A stretch of DNA of 64,000 bases, taken from contig CANHZI010000001.1 in the NCBI GenBank assembly GCA_947464955.1, positions 12,206 through 76,205 of the forward strand, written 5' to 3'. The notes beneath the pieces are model-generated. The model was not told where the DNA came from and made no database searches. It saw only the letters and a list, made by a program, of their open reading frames with translations. This DNA comes from Oxalobacteraceae bacterium (GTDB taxonomy: Bacteria; Pseudomonadota; Gammaproteobacteria; Burkholderiales; Burkholderiaceae_D). A program made the position numbers and the translations under genes. This document shows positions 2,724 to 36,369 of this stretch, piece by piece; positions within the stretch are counted from its first letter, which is position 1; each line of letters opens with the position of its first letter.

Positions 2724-2735
2724 AACTATCGCCTG

Positions 2736-3476: not shown

Positions 3477-4192
3477 GCTCGCTCCCTTAATGATGCGCGC
3501 AAACGTGCAACCGCTTGGCTATGAAGCTGCGATACACGCGATTCAGAGACTCCCATTACAGCTCCAATCTCTTTAAGATTAAGTTCCTGCTCATAGTACA
3601 AACCCATTAGCAATTTCTCACGTTCGGGAAGCGCATTAATCGCATGCACCACGGCGTCACGAAAATCGCCATGCAAGAGATCTTGTAAGGGATCTCCTGA
3701 ACGCTCATCGTTACAAAAATGATCTAGGAAATGTTCCTTGGTATCAGCATCATGAAAATCTTCGTAATACAAAAGCTGGTGTCCGCCGCTTTCGCCCAGT
3801 AACTCCTGATAATCCGCCAATGATAACTTCAAATGTTTGGCAACTTCGGTTTCGAGTGGCGAGCGTCCTAAACGCTGCTGCAATTCATTCATCGCGTTTT
3901 CAATCTTGCGCATGTTTTGGCGCACGCCACGCGGCAACCAATCACTACTGCGCAGCTCATCTAACATGGCCCCGCGAATCCGCTGAATCGCGTAGGTTTC
4001 GAATTGCGCGCCGTGCGTCTCTTCATAGCGATTCACTGCGTCTAACAAGCCTATCATTCCAGCCTGAACTAAATCATCCACTTCTACACTAGGGGGAAGT
4101 CTTGCTTTTAACTGATATGCCAAACGCTTTACCAACGGAGCATGCTCAGTAAGTATCGAGTTTTTATCTGACTTGCCACTTGCTGTGTACAT
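3458..4192 (-). CDS. fliA: flagellar sigma factor FliA (sigma-28)
   Basis: 244 aa. Region 2 reads DDLVQAGMIGLLDAVNRYE...FETYAIQRIRGAMLDELR. Region 4 reads LKEIGAVMGVSESRVSQLHSQAV. Confidence 0.95.
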   Translation of the reverse strand: MYTASGKSDKNSILTEHAPLVKRLAYQLKARLPPSVEVDDLVQAGMIGLLDAVNRYEETHGAQFETYAIQRIRGAMLDELRSSDWLPRGVRQNMRKIENAMNELQQRLGRSPLETEVAKHLKLSLADYQELLGESGGHQLLYYEDFHDADTKEHFLDHFCNDERSGDPLQDLLHGDFRDAVVHAINALPEREKLLMGLYYEQELNLKEIGAVMGVSESRVSQLHSQAVARLRASLRERAWTGLA

Positions 4193-9750: not shown

Positions 9751-9776
9751 AAAAAAACCGCCGTAAAAGGCGGTTT
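9751..9776 (-). terminator. Rho-independent terminator closing the mot/che/HDOD gene string
   Basis: On the minus strand: AAACCGCC-ttttac-GGCGGTTT followed by TTTT. This is an 8-bp GC-rich stem plus a U-tract, 34 nt after the stop of the gene at 9810. Confidence 0.85.
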
Positions 9777-9809
9777 CTGAGGAAGATTAAATTTTAGGAA
9801 AATTTACAA

Positions 9810-11024: not shown

Positions 11025-11048
11025 AAATTTTTGATATTAAATAGAACT

Positions 11049-11678
11049 TCAGAATCCGAGACTATCGAGCAAATCATCGACTTGTCCTTGATTTGCTACG
11101 ACATCAGATTTCCCTTCAGGGTTCACCTGCGGACCGTTGAGTAGTCCATCTTGCTGAGGTCGCTTGGCCTGCTCTGGAGAGTACTCTATCAATAATTGCA
11201 CCATTTGCTGCTCGATGTTTTGTGCAATTTCAGTGACTTTTTTGATCACCTGGCCAGTCAAATCTTGAAAATCTTGGGCCATCATAATCTCGATCAAGTG
11301 CGCCTTTGTCTCTTTGCAATGCGCATTGGTCTTTTCGAAATGCATCAAGGCTTTTTCGAGCTGCATTTTATATTCAGACTCGGTTGGATTCCCCGCCAAC
11401 AAGCTACGAATCTCAACGCTCAAATCTCGTGCACCGTCATCTAATGCTTCTTGCAGCGGTATAGCTGCATCTGTTGCGTTCAATACCCGCTGCGCTGCAC
11501 GTTCAGACAATTTCGCAACATAGTCGAGACGGTCACGCGCATCAGGAATATCCTCCGCTGCGCGCTCCAATAACTTGTCTAAACCAAGTCCCCGCAAACT
11601 ATCATGCAATAAACGAGTCATGTGTCCAACACGAACCAACAGCTCATCTTGCTGCGAATGATCCACTTTGGTATTCAT
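11049..11678 (-). CDS. cheZ: CheY-P phosphatase CheZ
   Basis: 209 aa. The catalytic block is MMAQDFQDLTGQVIKKV. The C-terminal CheY-binding peptide is QVDDLLDSLGF, nearly identical to E. coli CheZ. Confidence 0.95.
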   Translation of the reverse strand: MNTKVDHSQQDELLVRVGHMTRLLHDSLRGLGLDKLLERAAEDIPDARDRLDYVAKLSERAAQRVLNATDAAIPLQEALDDGARDLSVEIRSLLAGNPTESEYKMQLEKALMHFEKTNAHCKETKAHLIEIMMAQDFQDLTGQVIKKVTEIAQNIEQQMVQLLIEYSPEQAKRPQQDGLLNGPQVNPEGKSDVVANQGQVDDLLDSLGF

Positions 11679-11706
11679 ATTGACTCCAAAAAATTTTTGG
11701 TTTTGT

Positions 11707-12102
11707 TTAGGCTGGCTTGCCTAATTTTTCAAAAATCTTTTGTAATTTTTCATCCAGAGTTGCGGCCGTAAATGGCTTAACCACATAACCATTCGCACCC
11801 GCTTGGGCTGCAGCAATGATGTTTTCTTTCTTCGCCTCTGCGGTCACCATCAGCACAGGCAATTTCGCCAGAGCTGGATCAGCACGGATATGCTGCAACA
11901 TCGTCAAACCATCCATGTTTGGCATATTCCAGTCAGAGATCACAAAATCAAAATCACCGCTCTTTAATTTTGCCAATCCAAGTGCGCCATCTTCTGCCTC
12001 ATCTACGTTCGAATAACCGAGCTCTTTGAGCAAATTTCTCACGATACGACGCATCGTTGAAAAATCGTCAACTACTAAAAATTTGAGGTTTTGATCAGCC
12101 AT
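11707..12102 (-). CDS. cheY: chemotaxis response regulator CheY
   Basis: 131 aa. Motifs: [35 protein letters not shown]. Confidence 0.96.
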
Positions 12103-12200
12103 AAATTACTCCATGATTTCTAAAGGACGGGTAATACACATTATCGGTTATATAAACAAATTTGGGGAAGCAAATTACACTATCAATCAACAATAAGACA

Positions 12201-13277
12201 CTAAACACGCAACGCTCGACTACCATGTTGCTCCAGATATCCAAGTACTTTCGTCGGCAAATCGTTTAACGCTGCGATCTCATGCACCGCACCAACAGCG
12301 ATTGCCTCTCGCGGCATGCCAAAAACAACACAGCTAGCTTCATCTTGAGCAAAGTTGAATGAGCCAGCACTTTTCATTTCCAGCATCCCTTCAGCACCAT
12401 CTTTCCCCATGCCAGTCAAGATTACCCCAACCGCATTTTTACCTGCGAATTTAGCAGCAGAGCGAAACAAAACGTCGACTGAAGGGCGATGGCGATTCAC
12501 TGGTTCTGAATCATCGAGTTCGGTCACGTAATTAGCACCACTTCTCGCTAATTTGAGGTGTGAGTGCCCTGGTGCAATATAGGCATGACCGGGAAGAATA
12601 CGCTCACCACCTTGAGCTTCAGAAACACTTATCTTGCAAATTCCATCGAGGCGCTTCGCGAATGATTTAGTAAAACCCTCTGGCATATGTTGGGTGATCA
12701 GAATTCCAGGGCAATCTGACGGCATCTGGCACAAGAAACTTTTAATCGCTTCGGTTCCTCCTGTCGAGGCCCCAACAATAATCAGCTTTTCACTACTCAG
12801 CAAAGGGTTCTTCATTGACGGTAAAACGACCGAGGCCTGTGCCGCATGCGCAACAGCTGCCGCAGCGCGTGCACGAATCTTCGCTTTTGAAGCGGCCCGA
12901 ATCTTATCGGTGATGACGTGAGCATATTCCAGCATGCCGCTCTGAATTGATAATTTCGGCTTGGTCACAAAATCCACAGCCCCCAACTCAAGCGCACGCA
13001 GGGTAATTTCCGAGCCGCGTTCAGTCAGCGAAGAAACCATAATGACTGGCATTGGACGCAGACGCATCAATTTTTCCAAAAAATCCAGGCCATCCATCTT
13101 CGGCATTTCGACATCGAGTGTCAGCACGTCAGGGTTGGTTTGCTTAATCAACTCACGCGCAACCAAGGGATCGGGTGCGACACCAATAACTTCCATGTCG
13201 GGTTCATTTCGGATAATTTCCGAAAGAATGCTACGTATCAGCGCTGAATCGTCGATGATGAGAACTTTTATTTTCAT
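12201..13277 (-). CDS. cheB: chemotaxis protein-glutamate methylesterase CheB
   Basis: 358 aa. It has a receiver domain (VLIIDDS...[10 protein letters not shown]) plus a methylesterase domain ([20 protein letters not shown]). Confidence 0.96.
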
Positions 13278-13336
13278 TGAGTTTCCCCGTGCGAGCGGCT
13301 AATCATAATTTAACTCTAAGAACTGCATCATCTGGG

Positions 13337-13945
13337 TCAAAACAAATCCACATCGCCACCAACAGGTGCACTCTTGAGCCTGCTAGCGTAATCGAGTTCG
13401 CGTTTTTTCAATGTATCGTTGTGTTCGACTTTCAATTTCTTGACAAGGACTTTCCCAGTCCGAGGAAAGAAATAAACCTTACGAGGATAAATATCGTTAA
13501 GATCTTCCGCGATCACACGCATTCTTTCCATTCGAAGATAGTCCAACACAAATTTCGCATTTCGCTCTCCGACATTAATCGAAGTAAATCCGCGCAGCAC
13601 ATTACCACCGCCAAATACTTTTGCTTCCATGTTTTCGCGTTTAGCACCGGCCTTGAGCAATTCATTGATCAGCACCTCCATTGCATAGGTACCATATCGC
13701 ATCGAGGCGGAGACGGGATTTTCGGAATTCTCTCCTCCATCCGGCAGCATAAAATGATTCATGCCACCAACCCCGGATACACGATCGCGAATACAAGCAG
13801 AAACGCATGAGCCCAGTACCGTAACGATGAGCATGTCCTTGCCAGTGAAGTAATATTCTCCTGGCAAAATCTTTGCTGCATCACAATCAAAAGTGCGATC
13901 GTAATAGACATTCGTCGCAAAGTGTTCTTCACTAAACTGACTCAT
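13337..13945 (-). CDS. cheD: chemoreceptor glutamine deamidase CheD
   Basis: 202 aa. The [13 protein letters not shown] motif carries the catalytic Cys and MNHFMLP the His. It lies between cheR and cheB. Confidence 0.9.
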
Positions 13946-13948
13946 GGA

Positions 13949-14836
13949 TCACCCTTTATTTAATTCGTGTGAATTCATTTTTTTACGTTTTTCTTCAGCT
14001 GTCGCAAGGACATAGACTGTCTTTCCACGCAATTTAAAATCATCTGAAACATATAAAAAGTTTTCAGAATGTCCTGCAAACAATAAGGCATCGGGCTTCA
14101 TCAAGGGCACAAACTTTTTCAAGATCTCCGACTGGGTTGGCTTATCAAAGTAGATCATCACGTTTCGACAAAAAATCGCATCAAAATCACCTTGCAAATG
14201 CCAACGATCATCTAGCAAGTTGAGGGGTTCGAACGAAATCAAATTACGGATTTCAGGGCGAACCATGACGCTGCCATCGTTTCTTCCTTTGCCACGTAGA
14301 AAAAATTTCCTAACCCTCTCCTGCGACATTTTTTCGACCCGATCAAGGTTATAAACTCCCTTGGCGGCGATTGCCAACACATTCGTATCAATGTCAGTCG
14401 CGATGATTTCTAAATGCGGAGACATCGTTCCTAACGCCTCACAAACAGTCATCGCGATTGAATAAGGTTCCTCGCCAGTAGAACTCGCCGAACACCAAAT
14501 ACGCAATGGTCCATGCTTTTTCTTAACGTGTTCCGCGAGAATAGGGAAATGATGCTCCTCCCGAAAAAACGACGTCAGATTAGTCGTCAATGCATTAGTA
14601 AATGACTCCCATTCTTGGCTCTCGGTTTCTCGCTCCAGCATATTCAAATATGTAGCGAAAGAATTGATACCAGTCGCTCGCAAGCGCCGCGCCAAGCGAC
14701 TGTACACCATCTCTTGCTTGCTCTCAGAGAGGGAAATTCCAGCACGCTTATAAATCAGGTCGCGAACACGATCAAAATCACGATGATTAAACTCGAATTC
14801 CTTTTCGCCGTCACCGCGCTCAGATTGTTTTGCCAT
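13949..14836 (-). CDS. cheR: chemotaxis protein methyltransferase CheR
   Basis: 295 aa. The SAM motif is IWCSASSTGEEPYSIAM, followed by FCRNVMIYFD. Confidence 0.95.
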   Translation of the reverse strand: MAKQSERGDGEKEFEFNHRDFDRVRDLIYKRAGISLSESKQEMVYSRLARRLRATGINSFATYLNMLERETESQEWESFTNALTTNLTSFFREEHHFPILAEHVKKKHGPLRIWCSASSTGEEPYSIAMTVCEALGTMSPHLEIIATDIDTNVLAIAAKGVYNLDRVEKMSQERVRKFFLRGKGRNDGSVMVRPEIRNLISFEPLNLLDDRWHLQGDFDAIFCRNVMIYFDKPTQSEILKKFVPLMKPDALLFAGHSENFLYVSDDFKLRGKTVYVLATAEEKRKKMNSHELNKG

Positions 14837-14886
14837 TATTGGTGTCCGTTTTTTGATCTAAGGTCTATTCAATTACCCAAGTTCAT

Positions 14887-15399
14887 TTATTCGGTGTGAT
14901 CTAGCAATCCCATTTCCGGGCTGGACATCAGTTTTTCGATATCGACTAGAATCAACATACGTTCATCCAAAGTACCGAGTCCAATCAAGAAGTCATCGTT
15001 GAACGTAGTATTCATCTCTGGTGCAGGACGCACCTGCTCTGGCATCAGGGTCATCACGTCGGACACGCTATCGACGACCATGCCCACAACTCGAGTACCA
15101 ATATTGAGGATAATGACCACTGTAAGTTGGTCATAAGTCGGTGTACCTAGATTGAACTTAATTCGCATATCGACGATGGGAACAATAATCCCTCGAAGAT
15201 TAATAACACCTTTCAGAAACTCAGGCGCATTCGCAATTCTCGTAACGGCTTCGTAGCCTCGAATCTCCTGCACTTTCAAAATATCAATACCGTACTCTTC
15301 GCTGCCCAACGTAAATGCCAAGAACTCATGTCGAGTGATTTCTCCATCGTCCTGTTCGCCACTTGCATTTTTCGTGTTAACGCCCGCGCTTTGTATCAT
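14887..15399 (-). CDS. cheW: chemotaxis coupling protein CheW
   Basis: 170 aa. Motifs: [24 protein letters not shown] and [16 protein letters not shown]. Confidence 0.95.
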
Positions 15400-15435
15400 G
15401 ATAGTTTCCTCGTTTAACGCTCAAGTCTGCAAAAT

Positions 15436-17463
15436 TTATCTCACTGCACGTAATAGTGCTGCCACATCAAGGATCAAAGACACCCCGCCATCGCCAAGTA
15501 TCGTTGCCCCAGAAATTCCCGGGATTTTTCGGTAATTCGATTCGATATTCTTCACTACAACCTGTTGCTGACCTACCAAGTCATCAACAAATAAAGCAGC
15601 TTTTTTGCCATCAACCTCGACAATGACTGTAATACCATTGGATGGATCAACATGACGTGGAACGATATTGAAACTCTCGTAAAGAGGAATCAATGGCAAA
15701 TACTCTTGGCGAATTTTAATCACGCGCCCTTTGCCGTTAATTTCTTTAATATCCTCGCGTTGCGGTTGCAAAGATTCAACGACAAACCCTAACGGCAAAA
15801 TATAGATCTCTTCGCCAACTTTGACCGACATACCATCCAAAATCGCCAACGTCAGTGGTAATGAAATTGTGATTGTCGTTCCAAATCCACGCGCAGACTT
15901 GATATCGACCACACCACCCATTTGCGTAATGTTACGTTTAACCACATCCATACCTACGCCGCGACCCGAGACATCAGTCACAACTTCAGCAGTAGAAAAA
16001 CCAGGTGCGAAAATCAACTGCCATACGTCTGAATCAGACATTGAGTCAGACACGGCCAAACCATTTTGCTTCGCTTTCGATAGAATTTTTTCGCGATGCA
16101 ACCCACCGCCGTCATCGCAAACTTCGATCACAATATTGCCGCCCTGATGTACCGCGGAGAGAGACAACTTGCCCGACTCACTCTTCCCATTTTCGACGCG
16201 CGTAGCCGGCATCTCGATACCATGATCGATACTGTTTCTTACGAGATGAGTCAATGGATCAACAATACGCTCAATAAGACCTTTATCAAGTTCCGTTGAA
16301 GCTCCATAGGTCACAAATTCAACTTTTTTCCCGAGTTTTGTCGCTAAATCACGCACCATTCTCGGGAACCGTGAAAACACGTAATCCATCGGCATCATCC
16401 GAATCGACATCACCGCTTCTTGCAAATCTCTTGTGTTGCGAGTCAAGTGAGCGACGCTGCTCAACAAACGCTCATTTGAAACGGGATCAAGGTCTTGCGT
16501 ACGTTGCGTCAACATCGCTTGAGTAATGACCAATTCACCAATGAGGTTAATGATTTGATCGACCTTTTCGATGCCCACACGAATCGTCGAAGATTCTTGA
16601 GAGCTTGCGCTCTTATCGACCTCTTTCTTTGCAGGCGCTTTAGAGACGGGCGGTGGCGGTGGCGCTTTCTCGACCACTTTTGCAGGAGCTGCCTCAACCG
16701 CCTCTGTTTCTGGAGGAAACATCGCATCGAGCGGTTCAAAGAAGCCATATCCTAAATCATCATCACTTGGCTGTTCTGCGGCGGCGACCGCTTCTGCTGT
16801 GATCGTCAATTTATCTGCATCAGTAATAAACGAACAAACGGCCAGGATATCGTCCTCACTACCGTTTGTTTTCAAATAGATCGATGATTTGCCATCACTT
16901 CCTTTTTCGCTTTTCGCATCGCCGAGCAAACCTAGCTCCGAAGTCAGGAGCTTGAGATCATCATCACCGACCTCGGCAAAACTGACACGAAACGCATGAT
17001 GATAAGTTTCGACTGCCTCCGCTACATTATTGACTGGAGCGAGATTCGCCACAGGCGCAGCTTTAGCGGCGATTTCACCCTGCACGAAAGATTGCAACAA
17101 CATACGTACGTCGCCAACGGCATCAAGATCGACTGCAGTACCATGGCGATGGCCGTCCAACTGCATTTTTAAGACATCTTTCGCCGCTAAGAATGCGTCT
17201 ACGTGATCTGAAGTCAGTGCCATTTCGCCTTTACGAATCTTATCCAAAAGATTCTCAAGGATATGCGTCACTTCCGTCATATCATTCAAACCGAAAGTCG
17301 ATGCACCACCTTTGATCGAGTGAGCTGCACGAAAAATAGCATTGAGATCCTCTGGGTCTGGCGATGCAACGTCGACACCCAATAACAACTTTTCTTTTTC
17401 AGCCAGGAGTTCTTCCGCTTCGTCAAAAAACACCTGAAAGAACTGACTCATGTCAATCGTCAT
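15436..17463 (-). CDS. cheA: chemotaxis histidine kinase CheA
   Basis: 675 aa. The Hpt motif is AAHSIKGGASTFG. It also has a Pro/Ala-rich linker, HATPase motifs (HLVRNSIDHGIE, DDGGGL, GRGVGMDVV) and a C-terminal CheW-like domain. Confidence 0.97.
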   Translation of the reverse strand: MTIDMSQFFQVFFDEAEELLAEKEKLLLGVDVASPDPEDLNAIFRAAHSIKGGASTFGLNDMTEVTHILENLLDKIRKGEMALTSDHVDAFLAAKDVLKMQLDGHRHGTAVDLDAVGDVRMLLQSFVQGEIAAKAAPVANLAPVNNVAEAVETYHHAFRVSFAEVGDDDLKLLTSELGLLGDAKSEKGSDGKSSIYLKTNGSEDDILAVCSFITDADKLTITAEAVAAAEQPSDDDLGYGFFEPLDAMFPPETEAVEAAPAKVVEKAPPPPPVSKAPAKKEVDKSASSQESSTIRVGIEKVDQIINLIGELVITQAMLTQRTQDLDPVSNERLLSSVAHLTRNTRDLQEAVMSIRMMPMDYVFSRFPRMVRDLATKLGKKVEFVTYGASTELDKGLIERIVDPLTHLVRNSIDHGIEMPATRVENGKSESGKLSLSAVHQGGNIVIEVCDDGGGLHREKILSKAKQNGLAVSDSMSDSDVWQLIFAPGFSTAEVVTDVSGRGVGMDVVKRNITQMGGVVDIKSARGFGTTITISLPLTLAILDGMSVKVGEEIYILPLGFVVESLQPQREDIKEINGKGRVIKIRQEYLPLIPLYESFNIVPRHVDPSNGITVIVEVDGKKAALFVDDLVGQQQVVVKNIESNYRKIPGISGATILGDGGVSLILDVAALLRAVR

Positions 17464-17512
17464 TATCCCACCCCATTATTTACTCGAATGATCTCGCAAA
17501 TATGCGCCTAGA

Positions 17513-17881
17513 TTAGCCAATCACTTTTTTCACAACTTCAGTCAGCTTTTGTGGATCAAATGGCTTTACTAACCAACCATTAGCGCCTGCTGCGCGCCCT
17601 TTTGCTTTCATATCATCACTAGATTCCGTGGTGAGCATTAAGATCGGCACTCGCTGATATGTCGCCAAAGCGCGAAGCGACTTAATCAAAGTTAAGCCAT
17701 CCATTCGTGGCATATTTTGATCAGTCAACACTAGGTCAACGACTTGATTCTTCGCCTTCTCTAGGCCATCCTGTCCATCGACAGCTTCGATTACCTGATA
17801 GCCGGCGGCCTTCAAACTAAATGCCACCATTTGGCGCAAGGAACCTGAATCATCCACTGCTAAAATTGTCTTAGCCATCAT
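17513..17881 (-). CDS. second CheY-like single-domain response regulator
   Basis: 122 aa. Motifs: ILAVDDSGSLRQM, LTDQNMPRMDG, MLTTES, LVKPF. It lies immediately upstream of cheA. Confidence 0.9.
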   Translation of the reverse strand: MMAKTILAVDDSGSLRQMVAFSLKAAGYQVIEAVDGQDGLEKAKNQVVDLVLTDQNMPRMDGLTLIKSLRALATYQRVPILMLTTESSDDMKAKGRAAGANGWLVKPFDPQKLTEVVKKVIG

Positions 17882-17927
17882 TACTCCATTTTCGAAAAAT
17901 TGAGAAAATTCTCAGTTCTGTCACACA

Positions 17928-18494
17928 TCAAAACAATTCAATATCACCACTATCAAGATGCTGCTGATTTACCGTCTTTCGTAATAAGCTCTTAAGCTCG
18001 ATACTTTGTCGTTGCAGACGCTCTGTTATCTCGGACAAGACTCCAGCGATTTCCTCGTTGCCGCCGTCATGGGGTATGTCATTACCGACATCCAAAGTGG
18101 AGAGCAACTCGCGCAAACCAGCACTCCGCTGCACAGTGCGAGAGATCAATTGACTAGTCAAATCCTGGAACTGCAAACTGGTCACCGCTCGATTAATATG
18201 CAAGGCAATATCAGCCTGAATTTGCGCCAGCTTATCGACACTTTCTTGAGGCACTTTGCCTTCACTGATAATTTCGCGAATATGCTCTTCTTGAACGGTA
18301 ATTGAACTGTGCAAGTCAAGGAAACTCGCGCCAAGCTTTTCGATCGCTTCAGCTAACAAAAGCGTAGTCTGTACAAGATCTGTCTCGACCTCGACCAAAT
18401 GATCAACACCGTGGTCGGAAACGCCAGCCAGCAGTTCCTTTACCCGAGATCCCAACATCTGTTTGTTCGACATCTTTAGCATCCCATTCTGCAA
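17928..18494 (-). CDS. short CheZ-like protein (putative CheY-P phosphatase); otherwise hypothetical
   Basis: 188 aa all-helical ORF between motB and cheY2. It contains SLQFQDLTSQLISRT, which resembles the CheZ catalytic block AQDFQDLTGQVIKRM. It ends in an acidic-hydrophobic tail, LDSGDIELF. The start codon is uncertain because there are several in-frame Met codons. Confidence 0.5.
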   Translation of the reverse strand: MQNGMLKMSNKQMLGSRVKELLAGVSDHGVDHLVEVETDLVQTTLLLAEAIEKLGASFLDLHSSITVQEEHIREIISEGKVPQESVDKLAQIQADIALHINRAVTSLQFQDLTSQLISRTVQRSAGLRELLSTLDVGNDIPHDGGNEEIAGVLSEITERLQRQSIELKSLLRKTVNQQHLDSGDIELF

Positions 18495-18533
18495 CGTTAC
18501 AGTTGCAATCTTTTAAGCAATTAATGAATTACA

Positions 18534-19451
18534 TTACTTTTTTGGTTCAGTTATCACATCAACTTGCTTACCTACATCGATTTCACCACCATCTTGCGAA
18601 GCCGATTGTTCGGCTTTCTTATTCATCACAATAATGCTAATCCGGCGATTAATTGGGTTCAACGGATCCCCTTTATCAAACAACACGGACGAAGATAATC
18701 CCACAATACGCAACACCTTCGTTTCATCCATGCCACCGTAGATCAATTCTCTCCGAGACGCGTTGGCGCGATCGGCAGACAACTCCCAATTGCTATACCC
18801 TTTTTCGCCATGGCCATAAGGTGCGGCATCGGTATGACCTGACAAACTAATTTTGTTTGGCACTTCATTCAACGCCAATCCGATCTCATGCAGAATCTCT
18901 TTCGTATAAGGCTGCAAATCAGCATTACCTGAAGCAAACATAGGCCGATTTTTTTCGTCCACCATTTGAATACGTAGGCCCTCAGAAGTGATGTCTAACA
19001 ATAGCTGTTTCTTAAACTGCTTCAGTGTTGGACTTGCTTCGATTGCCGCCTCAATTTTTTCTTTAAGCCCCTTCAAACGTTCGGCATCAACTTTGGCCAA
19101 CGCTGCTTCTGCGGCTTGCAAGTTATAAGTTTTCTTTGGCGCTTCAATATCCCCCTTGCGTGTTTGCCCTTCACGCAAAGATAAATCTTTACCGCCACCT
19201 TTAATCACACTCGAGCTATCACCACTACCATCACCACCGGACATCGCCACCTTCAACGGAGTTTGAAAGTACTCTGCAATACCTTGTAAATTACCTTTTG
19301 CGGTTGAGCCTAGCAGCCACATCAACAAGAAGAATGCCATCATCGCTGTCACAAAGTCAGCATAAGCGATCTTCCATGCACCACCATGGTGACCGCCCGC
19401 ATGCTTCTTGATGCGTTTGACGATAATGGGTCTTAGCTCTTCGTTTGCCAT
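18534..19451 (-). CDS. motB: flagellar stator protein MotB
   Basis: 305 aa. Motifs: GGAWKIAYADFVTAMMAFFLLMWL and an OmpA-like C-domain (SGHTDA...NWELSADRANASRR). Confidence 0.95.
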   Translation of the reverse strand: MANEELRPIIVKRIKKHAGGHHGGAWKIAYADFVTAMMAFFLLMWLLGSTAKGNLQGIAEYFQTPLKVAMSGGDGSGDSSSVIKGGGKDLSLREGQTRKGDIEAPKKTYNLQAAEAALAKVDAERLKGLKEKIEAAIEASPTLKQFKKQLLLDITSEGLRIQMVDEKNRPMFASGNADLQPYTKEILHEIGLALNEVPNKISLSGHTDAAPYGHGEKGYSNWELSADRANASRRELIYGGMDETKVLRIVGLSSSVLFDKGDPLNPINRRISIIVMNKKAEQSASQDGGEIDVGKQVDVITEPKK

Positions 19452-19467
19452 AGTTCAATCACAAAGA

Positions 19468-20328
19468 CTATTTAGACTTCGATTGTTTAATATGCTCTTC
19501 TAGTTCAGAGAATGTCGGGCGCTCTGTCGAATACAAAACTTTGCGACCAAACTCAACTGACAAGGCTGGTGCATAGCCATTCAAGCTCGCCAACAAAGTC
19601 ACTTTAATACATTGAAATGTCTTGGACGACTCATCTAAATTTTGCTCCATCAAACTCGCCAACGGACCAACAAAACCATAAGCCAGCAAAATACCAAGGA
19701 AAGTACCAACCAAAGCATGGGCAATCAAAATCCCCAACTCTGCTGGCGGAATACCCACAGACTCCATGGTATGAACCACACCCATCACCGCCGCAACGAT
19801 ACCGAACGCTGGCAAACCATCACCTAATTTCGCGATAAAGTGGGCAGGTGCTGCACCTTCGTGGTGATGCGTCTCCAGCTCGTTATCCATCAGGTTTTCA
19901 ATTTGAAATGCGTCCATATTACCGGACACCATCAAACGCAGATAATCACCTAAGAATTCCATCAAATGATGATCCGAGACCACCAAAGTGTATTTACTAA
20001 AGAGCGGGCTTTCCTCAGGCTTTTCGATGTCTCCTTCGATCGACATCAAGCCTTCTTTCCGAATTTTTGTGAGGACATCAAACAACATTGTCATCAGCTC
20101 CATATACAAGGCTTTGCTGTATTTAGAACCTTTGAATACGCTAGGCAAAGCCTTCAATGAAGCTTTGAGAGTTTTAGCATTATTACCGACCAGCGAAGCA
20201 CCGACGGCAGCGCCACCAATCATGAGTAATTCGAGCGGCTGAAAAAGAACGGCGAGATGACCGCCTGACATGACGAAACCGCCGAAAACGGACCCGCAAA
20301 CAACGATATAGCCGACGATGACTAACAC
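19468..20328 (-). CDS. motA: flagellar stator protein MotA
   Basis: 286 aa with a GTG start 8 nt after the GAGGAG SD. It has 4 TM segments and the conserved IAHALVGTFLGILLAYGFVGPLA region. Confidence 0.95.
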   Translation of the reverse strand: MLVIVGYIVVCGSVFGGFVMSGGHLAVLFQPLELLMIGGAAVGASLVGNNAKTLKASLKALPSVFKGSKYSKALYMELMTMLFDVLTKIRKEGLMSIEGDIEKPEESPLFSKYTLVVSDHHLMEFLGDYLRLMVSGNMDAFQIENLMDNELETHHHEGAAPAHFIAKLGDGLPAFGIVAAVMGVVHTMESVGIPPAELGILIAHALVGTFLGILLAYGFVGPLASLMEQNLDESSKTFQCIKVTLLASLNGYAPALSVEFGRKVLYSTERPTFSELEEHIKQSKSK

Positions 20329-20465
20329 GAGTGAGACTCCTCAAGAAGAACTGCCACGCACCAAAATTAAATCCGTAGAGCAATATCTAAAGAATACCAG
20401 CGATCTAGTAATATGAGGCAACATTTTCCAAAATATTGCTCAAAAAATATATTTCTGTTGTTTCA

Positions 20466-21218
20466 TTATATGCGCCATCCATACAAAGAAGGCCCATCAC
20501 TATCGATTTCCAACACAAAACTAGGCGCCACATCTGGAATAATGAACTCATAACTCAATAGCAGAGAGCCTTTTTTCATCTCTACGCTAGCTTTCTCCCA
20601 CAATTCAGGCATCGCTGCAGGAGAAAGATAACAAAAAACAACATCAAAATCGTTAAGATCGAGAGAAAAGTAGCTGCCGAATAGAAATTTAACATTTGAC
20701 TGCCGATAGAAACGACGGCACTGGCAGTACCAATATGGCAGAGGCGCAATCTCGATACCAAAATAGCGTCCATCCTCGCGCAACTTCTCGAGGCGAAACA
20801 ACAAGCCGCCTAAGCCACTACCAAGATCGATAAAACGAGGATGTTGAAACTCATCAAGAAGCTTTGCTATCGGAGCAGCCAAGCTCGCACGTGATGGGTA
20901 ATAGGGAACCTGGGTACGATAAGTCGACCAAAAAACCAAAGCACAAATAACCAAGGCAATGAGATAGATCACCGGCGGAATATTCTGCTGGTAGGCGACA
21001 TATACAAACGAGGGAAAAACAAATTGAATGACACCCCACCACCAGTCGCACTTCAAGAGGTATGAAATGCCTGCGGCAAGAGTGCCACAGATGAGAAGGA
21101 ATACAGTCGGCGAGACAGCGAAACCGAAGTTTCGATTCACTACTACCAAACAAGAGAAGCACACTACAAAAGTCAGCACTTGCACTAACAGTGACTTCAC
21201 TCCAATCGATAATTTCAA
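20466..21218 (-). CDS. membrane-anchored class I SAM-dependent methyltransferase
   Basis: 250 aa. It has about four N-terminal hydrophobic helices, then motif I FIDLGSGLGGLLFRL and a post-I acidic residue (FGIEI). It is wedged between flhC and motA. Confidence 0.6.
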   Translation of the reverse strand: MKLSIGVKSLLVQVLTFVVCFSCLVVVNRNFGFAVSPTVFLLICGTLAAGISYLLKCDWWWGVIQFVFPSFVYVAYQQNIPPVIYLIALVICALVFWSTYRTQVPYYPSRASLAAPIAKLLDEFQHPRFIDLGSGLGGLLFRLEKLREDGRYFGIEIAPLPYWYCQCRRFYRQSNVKFLFGSYFSLDLNDFDVVFCYLSPAAMPELWEKASVEMKKGSLLLSYEFIIPDVAPSFVLEIDSDGPSLYGWRI

Positions 21219-21271: not shown

Positions 21272-21814
21272 TTAGTGGGTCAACTCAGCGTTTTTCGCTT
21301 TTTTTGTCTTACCTGCACGTGAAGGCACATGACATAAGCCGCAGGCATAATGATCGTGCAAGTCTAATGTATGCCCGACGAATTGACCACCACAATGCTC
21401 ACAACGCACAAAAGACAACATATTCCCTTCGAAGAAACGAACCAAGGTCCACGCGCGTGTCAGTGAGAGAACAGGCTCCTCACCTTCTGCAACTGGCATC
21501 TGCTCAAGATAGAGTTTATAAGCCTTGACGACCGCATGAATCCCACTAACACCGGCATGTTCACGAAGGTATTTGAAGATATTCATAAATAGGGAGGAAT
21601 GTATATTTGGCTGCCACGTAACAAACCAATCCGCAGAAAAAGGTAGCATTCCTTTTGGAGGCGAAACACCCTTGAGTTCTTTATAGATTTTCAAAAGGCG
21701 TTCACGCGATAAGGAGGTTTCGGACTCCAGCAGCTGCAAACGAGCACCTAAATTCACGAGATCAACAGCAAGTTGAATTTCATTCGCTTCATTCACGATA
21801 CTTTTCGTTGCCAT
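21272..21814 (-). CDS. flhC: flagellar master regulator subunit FlhC
   Basis: 180 aa. Motifs: IQLAVDLVNLGARLQLLE, LPFSADWFVTWQPNIHSS and the Zn-site cysteines CEHCGG...CGLC. Confidence 0.95.
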   Translation of the reverse strand: MATKSIVNEANEIQLAVDLVNLGARLQLLESETSLSRERLLKIYKELKGVSPPKGMLPFSADWFVTWQPNIHSSLFMNIFKYLREHAGVSGIHAVVKAYKLYLEQMPVAEGEEPVLSLTRAWTLVRFFEGNMLSFVRCEHCGGQFVGHTLDLHDHYACGLCHVPSRAGKTKKAKNAELTH

Positions 21815-21864: not shown

Positions 21865-22182
21865 TTACGCGATTTCTTCCACATTTTGACCAGCCATCAA
21901 AATGGCCGCATGGGACTGAGCCAAACTGCGCTCTTTGTTATAATTCGTCAACATACAGAGGATAGAGCTATCTTCGAAGCGGAAGCGAGCCAACATCATG
22001 TTAGAGCCAGCCAACTTCAAGATTTGAGAGTTATTTAATCCTTCGATTAAATCTGCGATCTCTTTGCCGATGCCTAAGCGGAAAATTGCTGTTGCCTTGT
22101 CCGCACGGATCATTTGCTGCGCGAGCATCAAGTAACTCAAGTTTGCATCGCGAATTTCAGCCATCATATCATTTGGTGTCAT
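21865..22182 (-). CDS. flhD: flagellar master regulator subunit FlhD
   Basis: 105 aa. Motifs: EIRDANLSYLMLAQQMIRADKATAIFRLGI and LARFRF. The GGGAG SD lies 7 nt upstream. Confidence 0.95.
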   Translation of the reverse strand: MTPNDMMAEIRDANLSYLMLAQQMIRADKATAIFRLGIGKEIADLIEGLNNSQILKLAGSNMMLARFRFEDSSILCMLTNYNKERSLAQSHAAILMAGQNVEEIA

Positions 22183-22183
22183 T

Positions 22184-22309
22184 TTAGCACTCCCACTTAT
22201 TTGCCCTAGCGAAATGTGTTGCCAGTGGGATACATTGTGTTACCAAGAAAAAATGTGTTGTATCAGAGAAATGATGTAAATTCGCACAGAAAAAGACGAT
22301 CGCCCACAT
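22184..22309 (-). CDS. candidate 41-codon upstream ORF in the flhDC leader (speculative)
   Basis: GAGG-N7-ATG at 22309. Translation: MWAIVFFCANLHHFSDTTHFFLVTQCIPLATHFARANKWEC. Its TAA stop (22186-22184) is 1 nt before the flhD ATG, and the flhD SD lies inside its last codons. I see no homology support. Confidence 0.25.
   Translation of the reverse strand: MWAIVFFCANLHHFSDTTHFFLVTQCIPLATHFARANKWEC
22213..22262 (-). repeat. three direct AACACA(T/A)T repeats in the flhDC leader
   Basis: The minus strand reads CAACACATTT (from 22260), TAACACAATG (from 22242) and CAACACATTT (from 22221), spaced 18 and 21 nt apart. On the plus strand these appear as aatgtgttg / cattgtgtta / aatgtgttg. Confidence 0.6.
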
Positions 22310-22344
22310 AGGAAAACCTCCTACATATGGTCGGTAATTTGATA

Positions 22345-22364
22345 TTGCACTGCTAGCAATGCAA
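22345..22364. promoter_or_regulatory. 20-bp imperfect palindrome in the flhDC leader/promoter region
   Basis: TTGCAcTGCTAGCAaTGCAA is symmetric apart from one position per arm. It could be an operator, or an 8-bp RNA hairpin in the leader. Confidence 0.35.
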
Positions 22365-22474
22365 AAATTGAATTGTCGCTGAATTAATTAACATTTTTGA
22401 CAAATATTAAAATAATCCAATAAAAACAAAGGCTTATAAAATTTTACTGAAAACTCTTTAGCCTCTTAAAATCA

Positions 22475-22501
22475 TTAACGGCAGACTTTAGGAAAACTTT
22501 A
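22475..22501 (-). promoter_or_regulatory. sigma-28-type promoter motif P1 facing flhDC
   Basis: The minus strand reads TAAAGTTT-tcctaaagtct-GCCGTTAA. The -35 box matches 8/8, the spacer is 11 nt and the -10 box matches the enteric consensus 7/8. It shares CCGTTA with the flgM promoter in this window. Confidence 0.55.
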
Positions 22502-22552
22502 GGGTCCAAACAAAATATTTTTCAATTATTTTTAAGCTTGTTCGTAGGACTC

Positions 22553-22579
22553 TTAACGGTGCAATTTCAGAAAACTTGA
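22553..22579 (-). promoter_or_regulatory. sigma-28-type promoter motif P2 facing flhDC
   Basis: The minus strand reads TCAAGTTT-tctgaaattgc-ACCGTTAA. The -35 box matches 7/8, the spacer is 11 nt and the -10 box matches 6/8. Confidence 0.45.
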
Positions 22580-22601
22580 GTGTTTTTTTGAAAAAAATCA
22601 A

Positions 22602-22628
22602 AAAAGTTTGTTGGAAATTTGCCGAAAA
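22602..22628 (+). promoter_or_regulatory. sigma-28-type promoter motif P3 facing away from flhDC
   Basis: The plus strand reads AAAAGTTT-gttggaaattt-GCCGAAAA. The -35 box matches 7/8, the spacer is 11 nt and the -10 box matches 7/8. Confidence 0.45.
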
Positions 22629-22635
22629 GTAATAA

Positions 22636-22727
22636 AACGACAAAATTCCCCATTGTCACCACGTCATCTAAAGTGAATATAAAGACAAAAGGGAGCGCCT
22701 TTTAAAGCGCTCCCTTCCATTTTTTCT
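22636..22727 (+). ncRNA. candidate sRNA of about 90 nt, bounded by P3 and the bidirectional terminator (speculative)
   Basis: The predicted start is about 7-9 nt after the P3 -10 box. There is no ATG ORF in the interval. It ends at the hairpin GGGAGCGC-cttttaaa-GCGCTCCC followed by TTCCATTTTTT. Confidence 0.3.
22691..22727. terminator. bidirectional intrinsic terminator (dnaQ on the minus strand; candidate sRNA on the plus strand)
   Basis: A perfect 8-bp GC-rich stem (22691-22698 / 22707-22714) with an 8-nt loop. T-rich tracts follow on both strands: plus ttccattttttct, minus ttttgtctttatatt. Confidence 0.75.
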
Positions 22728-22786
22728 GAGCCATTTGCTCTCTTGAATTGTTCAATTGCTACCGAAAAATGCGCGAAATCACCAAA

Positions 22787-23503
22787 CTAAACCATCTCGC
22801 TCTGGTTTTGCCCCCACACACTGCTTCCGTTTTTGCCAAGATCTTCAAGTTGTTTGCAATGAGCATCTACCTCAGCACCGTTGGCCCGCTGCACCAAAAC
22901 CTCATAAGGACCATCATCTACCACGACCTGCTCCACAGTCTCAACTACTCTCTCAGATTCGTCATCGAGACTGATAAAACTGTTTTGCCCCCGAGACATC
23001 GCCAGAAATACATCTGCTAGGAGTTCAGCATCAAGTAAGGCGCCATGTAGCTTACGATGCGCGTTCGATATCTCGTAGCGATCACACAATGCATCCAATG
23101 AATTTCGTTTGCCGGGATGCAGCTCTTTCGCCTGCACTAAAGAATCAATGACCGTGCCCACATATTGATCAAAGGAGCCGCGGCCTAATAGTTCAAACTC
23201 AGCATTTAAGAAGCCCATATCAAACGGTGCATTATGGATAATGAGCTCAGCACCCTGTATGTATTCTAGAAATTCCTCGGCAATTTCTGAGAATTTCGGC
23301 TTATCACTCAGGAACTCGGTTGTCAGTCCATGTACTGCCAACGCCCCCTCTTCCGAATCACGCTCAGGATTAATATACCGATGAAAGTTATTGCCAGTTA
23401 GCTTACGATTGACCAATTCAACGCAGCCAATTTCAATGATACGATTACCTTGACGTGGGTTAAGTCCGGTAGTTTCCGTATCTAAGACGATTTGTCTAGT
23501 CAT
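22787..23503 (-). CDS. dnaQ: DNA polymerase III epsilon subunit (3'-5' proofreading exonuclease)
   Basis: 238 aa. ExoI is IVLDTETTGL, ExoII is LIIHNAPFDMGFL and ExoIII is HGALLDAELLADVF. Confidence 0.95.
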   Translation of the reverse strand: MTRQIVLDTETTGLNPRQGNRIIEIGCVELVNRKLTGNNFHRYINPERDSEEGALAVHGLTTEFLSDKPKFSEIAEEFLEYIQGAELIIHNAPFDMGFLNAEFELLGRGSFDQYVGTVIDSLVQAKELHPGKRNSLDALCDRYEISNAHRKLHGALLDAELLADVFLAMSRGQNSFISLDDESERVVETVEQVVVDDGPYEVLVQRANGAEVDAHCKQLEDLGKNGSSVWGQNQSEMV

Positions 23504-33855: not shown

Positions 33856-36369
33856 TTAACGCTTTTTCCTTGCAGGCTTACTAGCTTTTGCTTTGCGTTC
33901 TGCACGTGAAGGACCTGCCGCCGCTTTACGCGCTTTAGTCTTCGATGCTGGCTCCGCAAAAGAACTTGAGGCGCGAGATTTTGTAGACTTGCTTGCATTC
34001 GTCTTCGAAACCTCAACAGCCTTAGGGGGTGCTGGTTTGCGCTTACCACCACGCGGCTCGGCCATCTGTTCGAATTCGCGCACTTTCGGAAAACGATTCG
34101 GCACCGCATTGGCCGCTAGCGCTAAGTCAATCTTGCGCGCATCGATATCGACACGACTCACCTGCACTTTAATTTTGTCCGTCAATTGATAACGTTTGCC
34201 AGTTCGCTCACCGCGCAATTCGTGACGCGCTTCATCAAATTGGAAATAATCAGCGCCGAGATCGGTGATGTGCACCAATCCTTCGACAAACATTTCATCG
34301 AGCTGCACAAACAAACCAAACTGAGTGACTCCAGTGATCGTACCGCTAAACTCTTCACCCAATTTATTCTTCATGAAATAACATTTGAGCCAGGCTTCAA
34401 CGTCGCGAGAGGCTTCATCCGCACGCCGTTCATTCGCAGAACAATGCGTCCCCAGCATGTCCCAAATCGTAATTTCTTTTTGCGGCCGTTCTTTTCCTGC
34501 GGCACGATCGGCTGCCATTTGTTTGCGTGCAGCGTTGGAAATTGCCGTATTCAAAATACTGGTATCAATGCCCTTGGGCTCATATTTCTTGCCCGCTAAA
34601 ATGGCTTTGATCGCACGATGCGTCAACAAATCAGGATAACGTCGAATCGGGCTTGTGAAGTGGGCATAGGCATCATATGACAAACCAAAGTGACCGATAT
34701 TATCAGGGCTATAAACCGCTTGTTGCATAGAACGAAGCAACATCGTTTGCAATAATTGCGAATCAGGGCGAAGCTTAATTTTCTCCATTAACTGTGCATA
34801 ATCAGAGGCTGAAGGTGAATCACCGCCAGTCAAATTCAAGCCAACTTGGCGCAAGAAATTTCTGACCTGAGTCAATTTTTCTTTGGTTGGGCCCGCGTGA
34901 ATGCGATACACACCGAGATGCTCATATTCTTGCAATAAACTCGCGGCACAAACATTGGCCGCCAACATGCATTCTTCGATCAAGCGATGCGCGTCATTTC
35001 GAGTGCGTGGCAAGATTTTCTCAATTTTGCCCGCAGCATTCGCCACGATATAGGTTTCAGTCGTTTCAAAATCAATCGCACCACGGCGGTGGCGAGCCTT
35101 CAGCAACACTTGGAACACTTCGTAAAGGTTCAACAAATCAGGGACCAAATTCGCACGCTTGGCCGCTTCAGGACCTTTGGTATTACCTAGAATCGCAGCC
35201 ACTTCAGTATAGGTAAAGCGTGCTGCCGAATGCATTACCGCAGGATAAAATTGGTAAGCAATGACTTCGCCATCGGAGGAAATGACCATATCGCACACCA
35301 AGGTCAAGCGATCGACATTGGGATTGAGCGAGCATAAACCATTCGATAATTTTTCCGGCAACATCGGTATAACTCGACGCGGAAAATACACTGAAGTACT
35401 CCGAAGCAAAGCATCTTCATCGATTGCGTCATTCGGTTTGACGTAATGACTGACGTCGGCGATCGCTACTAATAAACGGTAGGCTTTTTCACGTCCCACT
35501 TTCACTGGCGTGCAATAGACTGCATCGTCAAAATCTCGAGCGTCTTCACCATCGATTGTCACTAATGGTACATCTCGTAAATCAACCCGATCATCAAGAT
35601 CCGCTGGTCCGACCTCTCCGGGTAACTTCGCTGCAGCTTTCTTCGCAGGTTCAGAAAATTCATGAGGCACACCAAATTTGCGTACCGCGATTTCAATTTC
35701 GATTCCGGGATCATCAATTTCGCCCAGAATCTCGACAATCTTACCGATCGCTTGCGAGTATTTAGTCGGCTGTTCAATCAGTTCGACACTCACAACCTGA
35801 CCTGCTTTCGCCTTGCCTGGCGATCCCGCTAACAAAATATCTTGGTTGATGCGATTATCCTCGGGCGCAATCAACCACACGCCATTCTCGCTCACCAGAC
35901 GACCAATGATGTGGGTATTTCCACGCTCTAGAATTTCGTAGACCGCACCTTCAAGGCGCCCTTTTCTATCGGTACCGACTACGCGTGCACTGACTCTATC
36001 GCCATTCAAGATCCGCGTCATCTCGCGATCAGGCAAAAACAAGTCTGGACTACCATCATCTGGCGTCAAAAATCCATAGCCATCACGATGACTGCTCACC
36101 CGCCCAACAATCAGATTATCTTGTGCGATTAAGGAATAACTGCCGGCTTTATCTTGTTTGATTTGACCATCGCGTTCCATTGCTTTCAGTCTTCTTGCCA
36201 TACCGTCGATCTCCTCAGGTTTAACGCCTAATTTTTTTGCAATCGATGTCGCCTTCAGATGTGTTTTTGAAGAACGCAAGACGCCGAGTATGTCCTCGCG
36301 GCTAGGAATGGGGTAATGATGTTTGTTCAAATTGGTGTCATCTCTGTTGATATAAATTGGCAATGCCAC
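33856..36369 (-). CDS. rnr: ribonuclease R
   Basis: 837 aa. It has an RNB catalytic domain (TIDGEDARDFDDAVY, HFGLSYDAYAHFTSPIRRYPDLLTHR), an S1 domain (GTITGVTQFGLFVQL) and a Lys/Ala-rich basic tail. Confidence 0.96.
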   Translation of the reverse strand: MALPIYINRDDTNLNKHHYPIPSREDILGVLRSSKTHLKATSIAKKLGVKPEEIDGMARRLKAMERDGQIKQDKAGSYSLIAQDNLIVGRVSSHRDGYGFLTPDDGSPDLFLPDREMTRILNGDRVSARVVGTDRKGRLEGAVYEILERGNTHIIGRLVSENGVWLIAPEDNRINQDILLAGSPGKAKAGQVVSVELIEQPTKYSQAIGKIVEILGEIDDPGIEIEIAVRKFGVPHEFSEPAKKAAAKLPGEVGPADLDDRVDLRDVPLVTIDGEDARDFDDAVYCTPVKVGREKAYRLLVAIADVSHYVKPNDAIDEDALLRSTSVYFPRRVIPMLPEKLSNGLCSLNPNVDRLTLVCDMVISSDGEVIAYQFYPAVMHSAARFTYTEVAAILGNTKGPEAAKRANLVPDLLNLYEVFQVLLKARHRRGAIDFETTETYIVANAAGKIEKILPRTRNDAHRLIEECMLAANVCAASLLQEYEHLGVYRIHAGPTKEKLTQVRNFLRQVGLNLTGGDSPSASDYAQLMEKIKLRPDSQLLQTMLLRSMQQAVYSPDNIGHFGLSYDAYAHFTSPIRRYPDLLTHRAIKAILAGKKYEPKGIDTSILNTAISNAARKQMAADRAAGKERPQKEITIWDMLGTHCSANERRADEASRDVEAWLKCYFMKNKLGEEFSGTITGVTQFGLFVQLDEMFVEGLVHITDLGADYFQFDEARHELRGERTGKRYQLTDKIKVQVSRVDIDARKIDLALAANAVPNRFPKVREFEQMAEPRGGKRKPAPPKAVEVSKTNASKSTKSRASSSFAEPASKTKARKAAAGPSRAERKAKASKPARKKR

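Follow-up and report, generated by a model that had tools for sequence, protein, structure and literature searches.

Tandem sigma-28-type promoter modules upstream of the flagellar master operon flhDC in Undibacterium and related Oxalobacteraceae

Can the flagellar master operon flhDC be reached by the late sigma factor that stands at the lower end of its own cascade? The cascade from FlhDC to FliA (sigma-28) is a textbook example of hierarchical gene control, in which FlhDC is treated as the sigma-70-driven top tier. The question is raised by a 64,000-nucleotide (nt) stretch of DNA from an Oxalobacteraceae bacterium (GenBank assembly GCA_947464955.1, contig CANHZI010000001.1, positions 12,206 to 76,205), hereafter called the window, which encodes flhDC as well as both fliA and the anti-sigma factor gene flgM. 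Judged by its FlhC protein, which has 98% identity to its Undibacterium nitidum LX22W counterpart and 99% identity to the one encoded by an uncultured Oxalobacteraceae metagenome-assembled genome (MAG), the window belongs to Undibacterium (Oxalobacteraceae). The 604-bp spacer between dnaQ and flhD (22183-22786) houses three motifs, P1, P2 and P3, which an initial annotation had put forward as three FliA-type promoters, P1 and P2 on the flhD strand and P3 on the opposite one. From our sequence comparisons, P1 and P2 are very probably functional FliA promoters, and their transcripts probably read into flhDC. On balance we favour the full statement that genuine FliA promoters would here transcribe a leader, flhDC and probably motAB-che, and would thereby give rise to a feedback from the late to the master tier.

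On re-reading the sequence, the letters and coordinates of the three motifs and of the flgM promoter, the sigma-28 reference within the window, proved exact (Table 1). The geometry held as well: the flhD ATG follows the end of the -10 box after 292 nt in the case of P1 and after 370 nt in that of P2, and no open reading frame (ORF) of at least 60 amino acids (aa) lies between these motifs and flhD, where only ORFs of 41 and 51 aa occur. Compared to TAAAGTTT-N11-GCCGATAA, P1 comprises one mismatch, P2 three and P3 two. If up to three mismatches are allowed, a scan of the window with this pattern yields five matches while 0.86 are expected, namely the flgM promoter, one site within flhB, P1, P2 and P3, and three of the five are located in the flhD spacer. 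A core weight matrix comprising only the 16 box positions was employed to rank 127,948 window positions. P1 (score 29.4) ranks first, the flgM promoter (26.0) second, P2 (20.3) third and P3 (12.6) fifth, while the top scores of equally long random Markov windows have a mean of 10.6 and a maximum of 20.4. Such a matrix scan had been proposed to gauge how often chance produces matches of this kind, and, run on the window, it separates the three motifs: P1 far exceeds chance expectation, P2 is borderline and P3 lies at chance level. While P2 is borderline by score alone, it is accepted as real because it is conserved in relatives.

P3, in contrast, was rejected as a third promoter, since its score is at chance level and its -35 box is gone in the nearest complete relative, L058 (AAAAAAAT). 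As the -35 box is missing from all other relatives too, P3 was not found in related loci outside the window. Of the three promoters originally claimed, only P1 and P2 consequently stand, by rank and by conservation. The idea that P3 together with a bidirectional terminator (22689-22716) forms a small RNA (sRNA) gene of about 90 nt was rejected as well, given the chance score, the lost -35 box and Rfam matches that are only sub-threshold. Read on the minus strand, bases of the P3 spacer and -10 box (22609-22627, TTTCGGCAAATTTCCAACA) fall into a block of the flhD strand, TTTCRRC-N6-ACCAACA, which is present only in the subclade nearest to the window (the window itself, L058, L004, L007 and L013). 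This block upstream of P2 may be a candidate regulator site.

The conservation of P1 and P2 was followed in 80 related loci (Undibacterium, Massilia, Duganella and MAGs) that were fetched and oriented on flhC, of which 78 were scanned for motifs. Synteny of dnaQ and flhDC is maintained across Undibacterium. Wherever the spacer measures at least 400 bp, every related locus bears a sigma-28-type module (at most three mismatches) at the P1 position, on the flhD strand and at a conserved distance: among 62 Undibacterium-like loci, 58 have 270-296 nt between the proximal -10 box and the flhD ATG (median 289 nt). A second module is found 63-130 bp upstream of P1 in 49 of 61 such loci. Undibacterium-like loci carry one (12 loci), two (46) or three (3) modules with a median spacing of 70 bp, Massilia and Duganella two to four per locus with a median spacing of 78 bp, and the Massilia locus L069 has four complete modules in a row. 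The P1 and P2 modules are tandem duplicates about 70-78 bp apart. An alignment of flhDC-upstream regions with those of relatives, suggested at the outset as a check on all three motifs, found the boxes of P1 and P2 conserved and P3 not. Judged from these comparisons, the P1 and P2 boxes are under selection.

The specificity of the motif is pronounced. Searching the 78 related loci for TAAAGTTT-N11-GCCG[AT]TAA with at most two mismatches, we obtained 140 matches from the flhD-upstream spacers (47.9 kb), each of them on the flhD strand, and not a single one on either strand of the 591 kb outside these spacers. At a looser core-matrix cut-off of 10, the flanks gave 4 matches where about 5 are expected. 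Information content amounts to 1.1-2.2 bits per position in the boxes and to 0.05-0.76 bits in the 11-nt spacers. Two fixed boxes around a free spacer of set length are the pattern expected of a sigma-factor promoter. At position +8 after the -10 box purines are enriched (A 57%, G 26%), which is only suggestive as a sign of the start site.

Besides the two boxes, the modules share further features. In a complete module, an UP-like AT-rich block would precede the -35 box TAAAGTTT with its CCC extension, and 11 nt would separate that box from the -10 box GCCG(T/A)TAA. Among 136 distinct modules, C occurs at 92%, 84% and 69% at positions -1, -2 and -3 relative to the -35 box. This CCC extension is kept in the flhD-upstream modules of all genera and, within the same genome, is missing from the promoters of flgM and flgK; it may provide an extra contact or serve a second factor. 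Further upstream, at -20 to -11 from the start of the -35 box, A+T reaches 90-99% (128 modules). Estrem and co-workers are said to have arrived in 1998 at AAAWWTWTTTT as the UP-element consensus, and we take the AT block of P1, AAAAATATTTT, to fit it.

If P1 and P2 are read by FliA, the same motif should be present at late flagellar operons, and this is what was found. Beyond the flgM promoter within the window, the flgJ-flgK spacer contains TAAAGTTT-N11-CCCGATAA about 50 nt before flgK (L091 1673-1647), L091 being a metagenome scaffold with the same FlgM protein that extends 9 kb beyond the left edge of the window. Across the approximately 73 kb thus scanned, the four best matches are those of the late operons flgMN and flgKL plus P1 and P2. 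The proposal of FliA-type promoters aimed at flhDC is borne out for P1 and P2 in that all sequence features are present, conservation is family-wide and the motif recurs at flgM and flgK. Two other sites scored by the matrix are probably chance matches. One, TAAAGTGC-N11-GTCGATAT (34145-34171, minus strand, score 16.1), lies inside the RNase R gene and upstream of an rRNA methylase gene; the other, CAAAGTGC-N11-GTCGATAA (18232-18258, minus strand, score 11.8), lies inside orf188, an ORF 3' of motB, upstream of a cheY-like gene and is common to L058 only.

What might such promoters serve besides flhDC? The FliA promoter of motA is the most conserved FliA promoter in Proteobacteria and, if outside flhC, sits in the flhC-motA spacer (Fitzgerald and colleagues, bioRxiv 10.1101/188474). 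Within about 200 nt upstream of motA, however, no sigma-28 motif was found in the window, in the 78 related loci or in Janthinobacterium, which is notable precisely because of that conservation. Likewise, beyond the probable chance match inside orf188, no sigma-28 motif was found in the co-directional stretch after flhC (9753-21218), either in the window or in relatives.

Three states can be distinguished among the sampled genomes, in which the motif occurs at motA alone, upstream of flhD alone or at both. Escherichia coli has a known motA promoter inside the 3' end of flhC and none upstream of flhD, where our control scan found no consensus-grade sigma-28 match. Burkholderia glumae has one in the flhC-motA spacer and none upstream of flhD; in Ralstonia, Cupriavidus and Caballeronia none was found upstream of flhD and, at the thresholds used, none at motA either. 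For all five of these controls, the absence upstream of flhD refers to motifs on the flhD strand. Both places are occupied in a Herminiimonas MAG (one strong module upstream of flhD, one motif at motA) and in Noviherbaspirillum pedocola (two weaker modules, one motif at motA), while Janthinobacterium sp. 17J80-10 has two strong modules upstream of flhD and none at motA. Herbaspirillum sp. shows a weak match at motA only. Given that the usual motA FliA promoter is absent here, the upstream promoters probably serve motAB-che too, and its loss would be explained most simply if promoters of the P1/P2 type supply motA. Since genera with both promoters exist, the distribution suggests that the motA promoter became dispensable once the upstream modules had arisen and was then lost in the Massilia-Janthinobacterium-Undibacterium branch, an order of events that would require read-through.

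Other signals in the region were considered as well. The sole positionally conserved sigma-70-like pattern is TT[GA]AAA-N17/18-TAAAGT, in which the sigma-28 -35 box doubles as -10 hexamer. It is present in 44 of 61 loci at P1 and in 22 of 61 at P2, the copy in the window being TTGAAA-N18-TAAAGT (22494-22525, minus strand), and it may allow a basal transcription of the module without FliA. A separate, conserved sigma-70 promoter was not found in the flhD spacer of the 61 loci, where other positions remain below 25%, by a scan that is blind to weak activator-dependent promoters. The spacer between orf250, which lies between flhC and motA, and motA itself is poorly conserved and contains no recognisable conserved promoter. 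Downstream, the terminator scan found no strong minus-strand terminator between flhD and 9778. At the other end of the flhD spacer, after dnaQ, a GC-rich inverted repeat (22685-22720, GGGAGCGC...GCGCTCCC) is flanked by T runs on both sides; it would represent a bidirectional terminator-like element that insulates the flhDC spacer from dnaQ read-through. Inspection, by eye only, of the regions upstream of flhB and flgA/flgB for FlhDC boxes delivered nothing usable.

If transcription starts at P1, selected structured RNA should extend from just downstream of P1 to flhD, and this is seen. A FliA-dependent long leader had been offered as an alternative to direct feedback, and it gains support as well, since the 285-nt stretch from P1 to flhD carries two structurally conserved hairpins. 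Hairpin A is more stable than its shuffled versions (median z = -2.95; z < -2 in 75% of 60 sequences). Hairpin B shows compensatory changes at 4 of 8 pairs in RNAalifold and is recovered in per-sequence folds, too. Such changes indicate selection on an RNA that extends from P1 in the direction of flhD. Herminiimonas, Noviherbaspirillum, Herbaspirillum, Janthinobacterium, Massilia and Duganella have a hairpin at this position as well. The Rfam search of the leader matched no family. In Ralstonia GMI1000 (L082), where sigma-28 modules were not found, GTAGGATGATTGCCTA about 298 nt upstream of flhD resembles the top of hairpin B, so the flhDC leader hairpin may predate the Oxalobacteraceae.

In most Undibacterium, 5-8 T are found within the 10 nt after the hairpin B stem. 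However, the terminator scan of the window did not call hairpin B plus its T-rich run, and the GC-rich genera (Janthinobacterium, Massilia, Duganella) lack a T tract after hairpin B. Both points weaken its interpretation as a canonical intrinsic terminator. Closer to flhD, the near-invariant 22-mer CACAATGTATCCCACTGGCAAC has a related sequence, TCTCAnnGGCAA, in Massilia, Duganella, Herminiimonas and Noviherbaspirillum. In the predicted fold of the window it is partly complementary to the ribosome-binding region, and it may serve as a translational operator or be targeted by an sRNA. Two other elements were tried for the leader and rejected. One was a conserved upstream ORF: the 41-aa ORF at 22184-22309, which ends just before the flhD ATG, has its own ATG in hairpin B, but this ATG is unconserved and reads CCTATTGG or CCTACGG in relatives. 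A sigma-54 promoter at TGGCAA (22223-22228) was dismissed because the alignment showed the -12 element to be neither present nor conserved.

Taken together, we propose the following course of events. FliA-RNA polymerase would initiate near 22467 at P1 and near 22545 at P2 and would transcribe a structured leader of about 285 nt and about 365 nt, respectively, before entering flhD and flhC. Transcription would most likely run on through orf250, motAB and che to the terminator at about 9753, because neither another FliA promoter nor a strong terminator follows flhC. After completion of the hook-basal body, export of FlgM would leave FliA free to stimulate the master regulator in a late-to-master positive feedback, and the same transcript would provide for the late genes of motor and chemotaxis. 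Translation could be dampened by the leader, or a fraction of the transcripts could end within it. Start-up would depend on a weak FliA-independent promoter, for which the overlapping sigma-70-like pattern is a weak candidate. Such late-tier feedback on FlhDC is plausible and strengthened by conservation, while FliA dependence, read-through and the sign of the effect are what we infer from sequence.

Table 1. Features of the flhDC region and of the FliA/FlgM pair in the window (coordinates in window positions)
Feature	Position	Strand	Sequence, basis or remark
P1, sigma-28 (FliA)-type core promoter	22501-22475	minus	TAAAGTTT-tcctaaagtct-GCCGTTAA; predicted start ~22467
CCC extension of P1 -35 box	22502-22504	minus	directly 5' of the box
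AT block of P1	22512-22522	minus	AAAAATATTTT; conserved in 61-sequence alignment; ~-45 to -55 from predicted start
P2, second, weaker sigma-28-type module	22579-22553	minus	TCAAGTTT-tctgaaattgc-ACCGTTAA; predicted start ~22545
AT-rich block of P2	22583-22598	minus	TTTTTTTCAAAAAAA; module architecture as at P1
P3, sigma-28-like match on opposite strand	22602-22628	plus	AAAAGTTT-gttggaaattt-GCCGAAAA; chance or lineage-specific
flgM promoter, sigma-28 reference	1001-1027	plus	TAAAGTTT-aaaataagcga-GCCGTTAC
Predicted flhDC leader from P1, 285 nt	22183-22467	minus	distance from P1 -10 box to ATG conserved
Leader block TAAG-N3-TTGTTTT	22424-22437	minus	conserved in alignment
Hairpin A	22344-22364	minus	per-sequence folds; structure kept, stem sequence differs between species
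Hairpin B	22304-22330	minus	GTAGGA...TCCTAC top, covarying lower stem; -142 to -147 from ATG
T-rich run after hairpin B	22288-22296	minus	begins 8 nt past the stem in the window
Near-invariant 22-mer	22218-22239	minus	CACAATGTATCCCACTGGCAAC; alignments; just upstream of ribosome-binding site, 35-55 nt before flhD ATG
dnaQ	22787-23503	minus	gene upstream of the flhD spacer
flhD	21865-22182	minus	NCBIfam NF002783, E = 8e-46
flhC	21272-21814	minus	NCBIfam NF009365, E = 1e-84
Co-directional genes 3' of flhC	9753-21218	minus	gene assignments and terminator scan; probably one transcription unit with flhDC
First strong minus-strand terminator after flhD	9778-9753	minus	terminator scan
fliA (sigma-28 factor, presumed reader of P1 and P2)	3458-4192	minus	NCBIfam NF005413, E = 1e-95
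flgM (anti-sigma)	1071-1385	plus	E = 2e-20

Several points weigh against this proposal. In the window, P2 is a degraded copy with its three mismatches, and the modules were not found upstream of flhD in the one Herbaspirillum genome. An activator-dependent sigma-70 promoter may be located close to flhD, and a non-FliA promoter that escaped recognition in the orf250-motA spacer might serve motA. In Undibacterium, hairpin B plus its T-rich run could end some or all transcripts before flhD. Moreover, if flhDC needs FliA and fliA presumably needs FlhDC, a start-up promoter is required, for which only a weak candidate is at hand. Some of these points feed an alternative that we regard as unlikely, yet as the most serious one: P1 and P2 would be real FliA promoters, but their main product would be a short noncoding RNA, about 165-245 nt long, or a leader cut short by attenuation, ending at hairpin B and the T-rich run (about 22290), and flhDC would depend on a separate proximal promoter or on regulated read-through. 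The two conserved leader hairpins, the 5-8 T after the second one in most Undibacterium and the single-stranded conserved TAAG-N3-TTGTTTT near the 5' end, which could act as seed, would fit to such an RNA. A documented precedent is MotR of E. coli, which arises from the sigma-28 promoter of motA when transcription terminates within the 5' untranslated region (PMC10578931, 2023). Both systems have in common a sigma-28 promoter beside flhDC, a structured 5' region and the possibility of early termination or read-through into a long flagellar operon. However, the leader described here shows no sequence or Rfam similarity to MotR, it precedes flhD instead of following flhC, and in most genera its hairpin does not qualify as a canonical terminator. 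The T run of the window begins 8 nt past the stem and the terminator scan made no call, while Janthinobacterium, Massilia and Duganella keep the hairpin without T tract, so that hairpin B is no canonical terminator family-wide. Nor does a conserved sigma-70 promoter lie between hairpin B and flhD, an Rfam match is lacking, and the loss of the motA promoter would be hard to explain if transcripts ended before flhD.

That same loss could be read differently: the modules might represent the motAB-che class III promoter, relocated to the start of a fused operon, with flhDC on the transcript being poorly translated or neutral and without meaningful feedback. The motA promoter is indeed missing exactly where the upstream modules are strong, no terminator separates flhC from motA, and the structured leader as well as the 22-mer beside the ribosome-binding site could hold down flhD translation. 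We nevertheless consider this quite improbable. Herminiimonas and Noviherbaspirillum have upstream modules and a motA promoter, thus the modules are kept even where motA has a promoter of its own, and P1 keeps a constant distance from the leader elements and the flhD ribosome-binding site, all of these being strongly conserved together. Very remote, finally, is the explanation that AT-rich intergenic DNA produced the motifs by chance or that a protein other than sigma-28 binds them. Chance would apply to P3 only, which scores like the best random level and is unconserved. An additional factor could touch the modules, as the CCC extension lies outside the textbook sigma-28 consensus and is missing at flgM. 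Against both stand the 140 strand-specific spacer matches compared to none in 591 kb of flanks, the two-box footprint with its exact 11-nt spacing and free spacers, the presence of the same motif at flgM and flgK, and the fact that the motif is directional rather than palindromic.

Beyond the proposed feedback, one might speculate on a stronger form of it, which we put forward only tentatively. In the Massilia-Janthinobacterium-Undibacterium branch the loop might be closed: flhDC would be transcribed essentially only from the tandem FliA modules, ignited by the weak overlapping sigma-70 pattern, with flhDC-motAB-che forming one transcript of about 12.7 kb. The FlgM-export checkpoint would then gate the master regulator and flagellation would become bistable, all or none, while the hairpins and the 22-mer would act as post-transcriptional throttle.

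The surrounding gene order is as follows. On the minus strand, flhC is followed by orf250 (methyltransferase-like), motA, motB, orf188, a cheY-like gene, cheA, cheW, cheR, cheD, cheB, cheY, cheZ and the gene of an HDOD protein, and beyond the terminator at 9778-9753 by flhB, flhA, flhF, flhG, fliA and a second stator pair; flgA, flgM and flgN occupy 244-1870 on the plus strand. The second stator pair, motC/motD-like (1947-3476, minus strand; NF006583, NF006541), directly follows fliA. As it exists besides the motAB genes after flhDC, the organism encodes two stator systems. Orf250 (20466-21218, minus strand) encodes 250 aa with N-terminal hydrophobic segments and a weak methyltransferase domain. 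It is kept in all Undibacterium, Massilia, Duganella, Janthinobacterium, Herbaspirillum and Noviherbaspirillum loci (30-69% identity; for example L087 4132-4884, L088 4049-4903 and L089 4102-4884) and is missing from Herminiimonas, B. glumae and E. coli. Orf188 (17928-18494, minus strand) encodes 188 aa without Pfam or NCBIfam match; Janthinobacterium and Herminiimonas have ORFs of about 180 aa in its place. The HDOD-domain protein (9810-11024, minus strand, 404 aa) is encoded 3' of cheZ, just ahead of the strong terminator. Orf188 and the HDOD gene are conserved genes without flagellar annotation inside the mot/che cluster.

How does the proposed arrangement relate to known systems? A sigma-28-dependent flhDC promoter has been claimed in enterohaemorrhagic E. 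coli (EHEC) (Clarke and Sperandio 2005, PMID 16135237; restated in PMC13505935), thus a sigma-28 input to flhDC is not without precedent. In both cases a late sigma factor would contribute to transcription of the class I master operon. The EHEC site, however, is proximal and tied to QseB, whereas the near-perfect matches in Oxalobacteraceae are repeated, lie about 290-370 nt upstream and are conserved across a betaproteobacterial family. In the E. coli study based on chromatin immunoprecipitation sequencing (Fitzgerald et al. 2014, PMC4183435), a text search found that the phrase 'upstream of flhD' occurs only in insertion-sequence contexts. With the enterobacterial class III promoters, especially that of motA inside flhC (PMC4183435; bioRxiv 10.1101/188474), the modules share the two-box consensus, the 11-nt spacer and the fliA/flgM pair, and their own probable downstream cargo includes motAB-che as well. 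They differ in their position upstream of flhDC, their one to four tandem copies, the CCC extension and UP-like block, and in that the motA position is empty. Positive feedback from the FliA tier on FlhDC is known, too, from Xenorhabdus FliZ (PMC3814329) and the E. coli sRNA UhpU (PMC10578931). There, lower tiers likewise feed back positively on the master regulator, but through a protein or an sRNA, while direct promoter recognition by sigma-28 is proposed here. Our literature search on flhDC regulation in Oxalobacteraceae found no paper. New here are the near-consensus tandem modules with UP-like AT blocks, family-wide and coupled to the loss of the motA promoter.

If the proposed reading is true, the flagellar hierarchy can close into a loop and operons can fuse during evolution. 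It would imply a checkpoint-gated positive feedback, and possibly bistability of motility, in common freshwater and soil Betaproteobacteria. The conserved RNA elements of the flhDC leader provide an additional lead. Since Janthinobacterium, Massilia and Duganella are culturable, the predictions are testable in members of the family itself.

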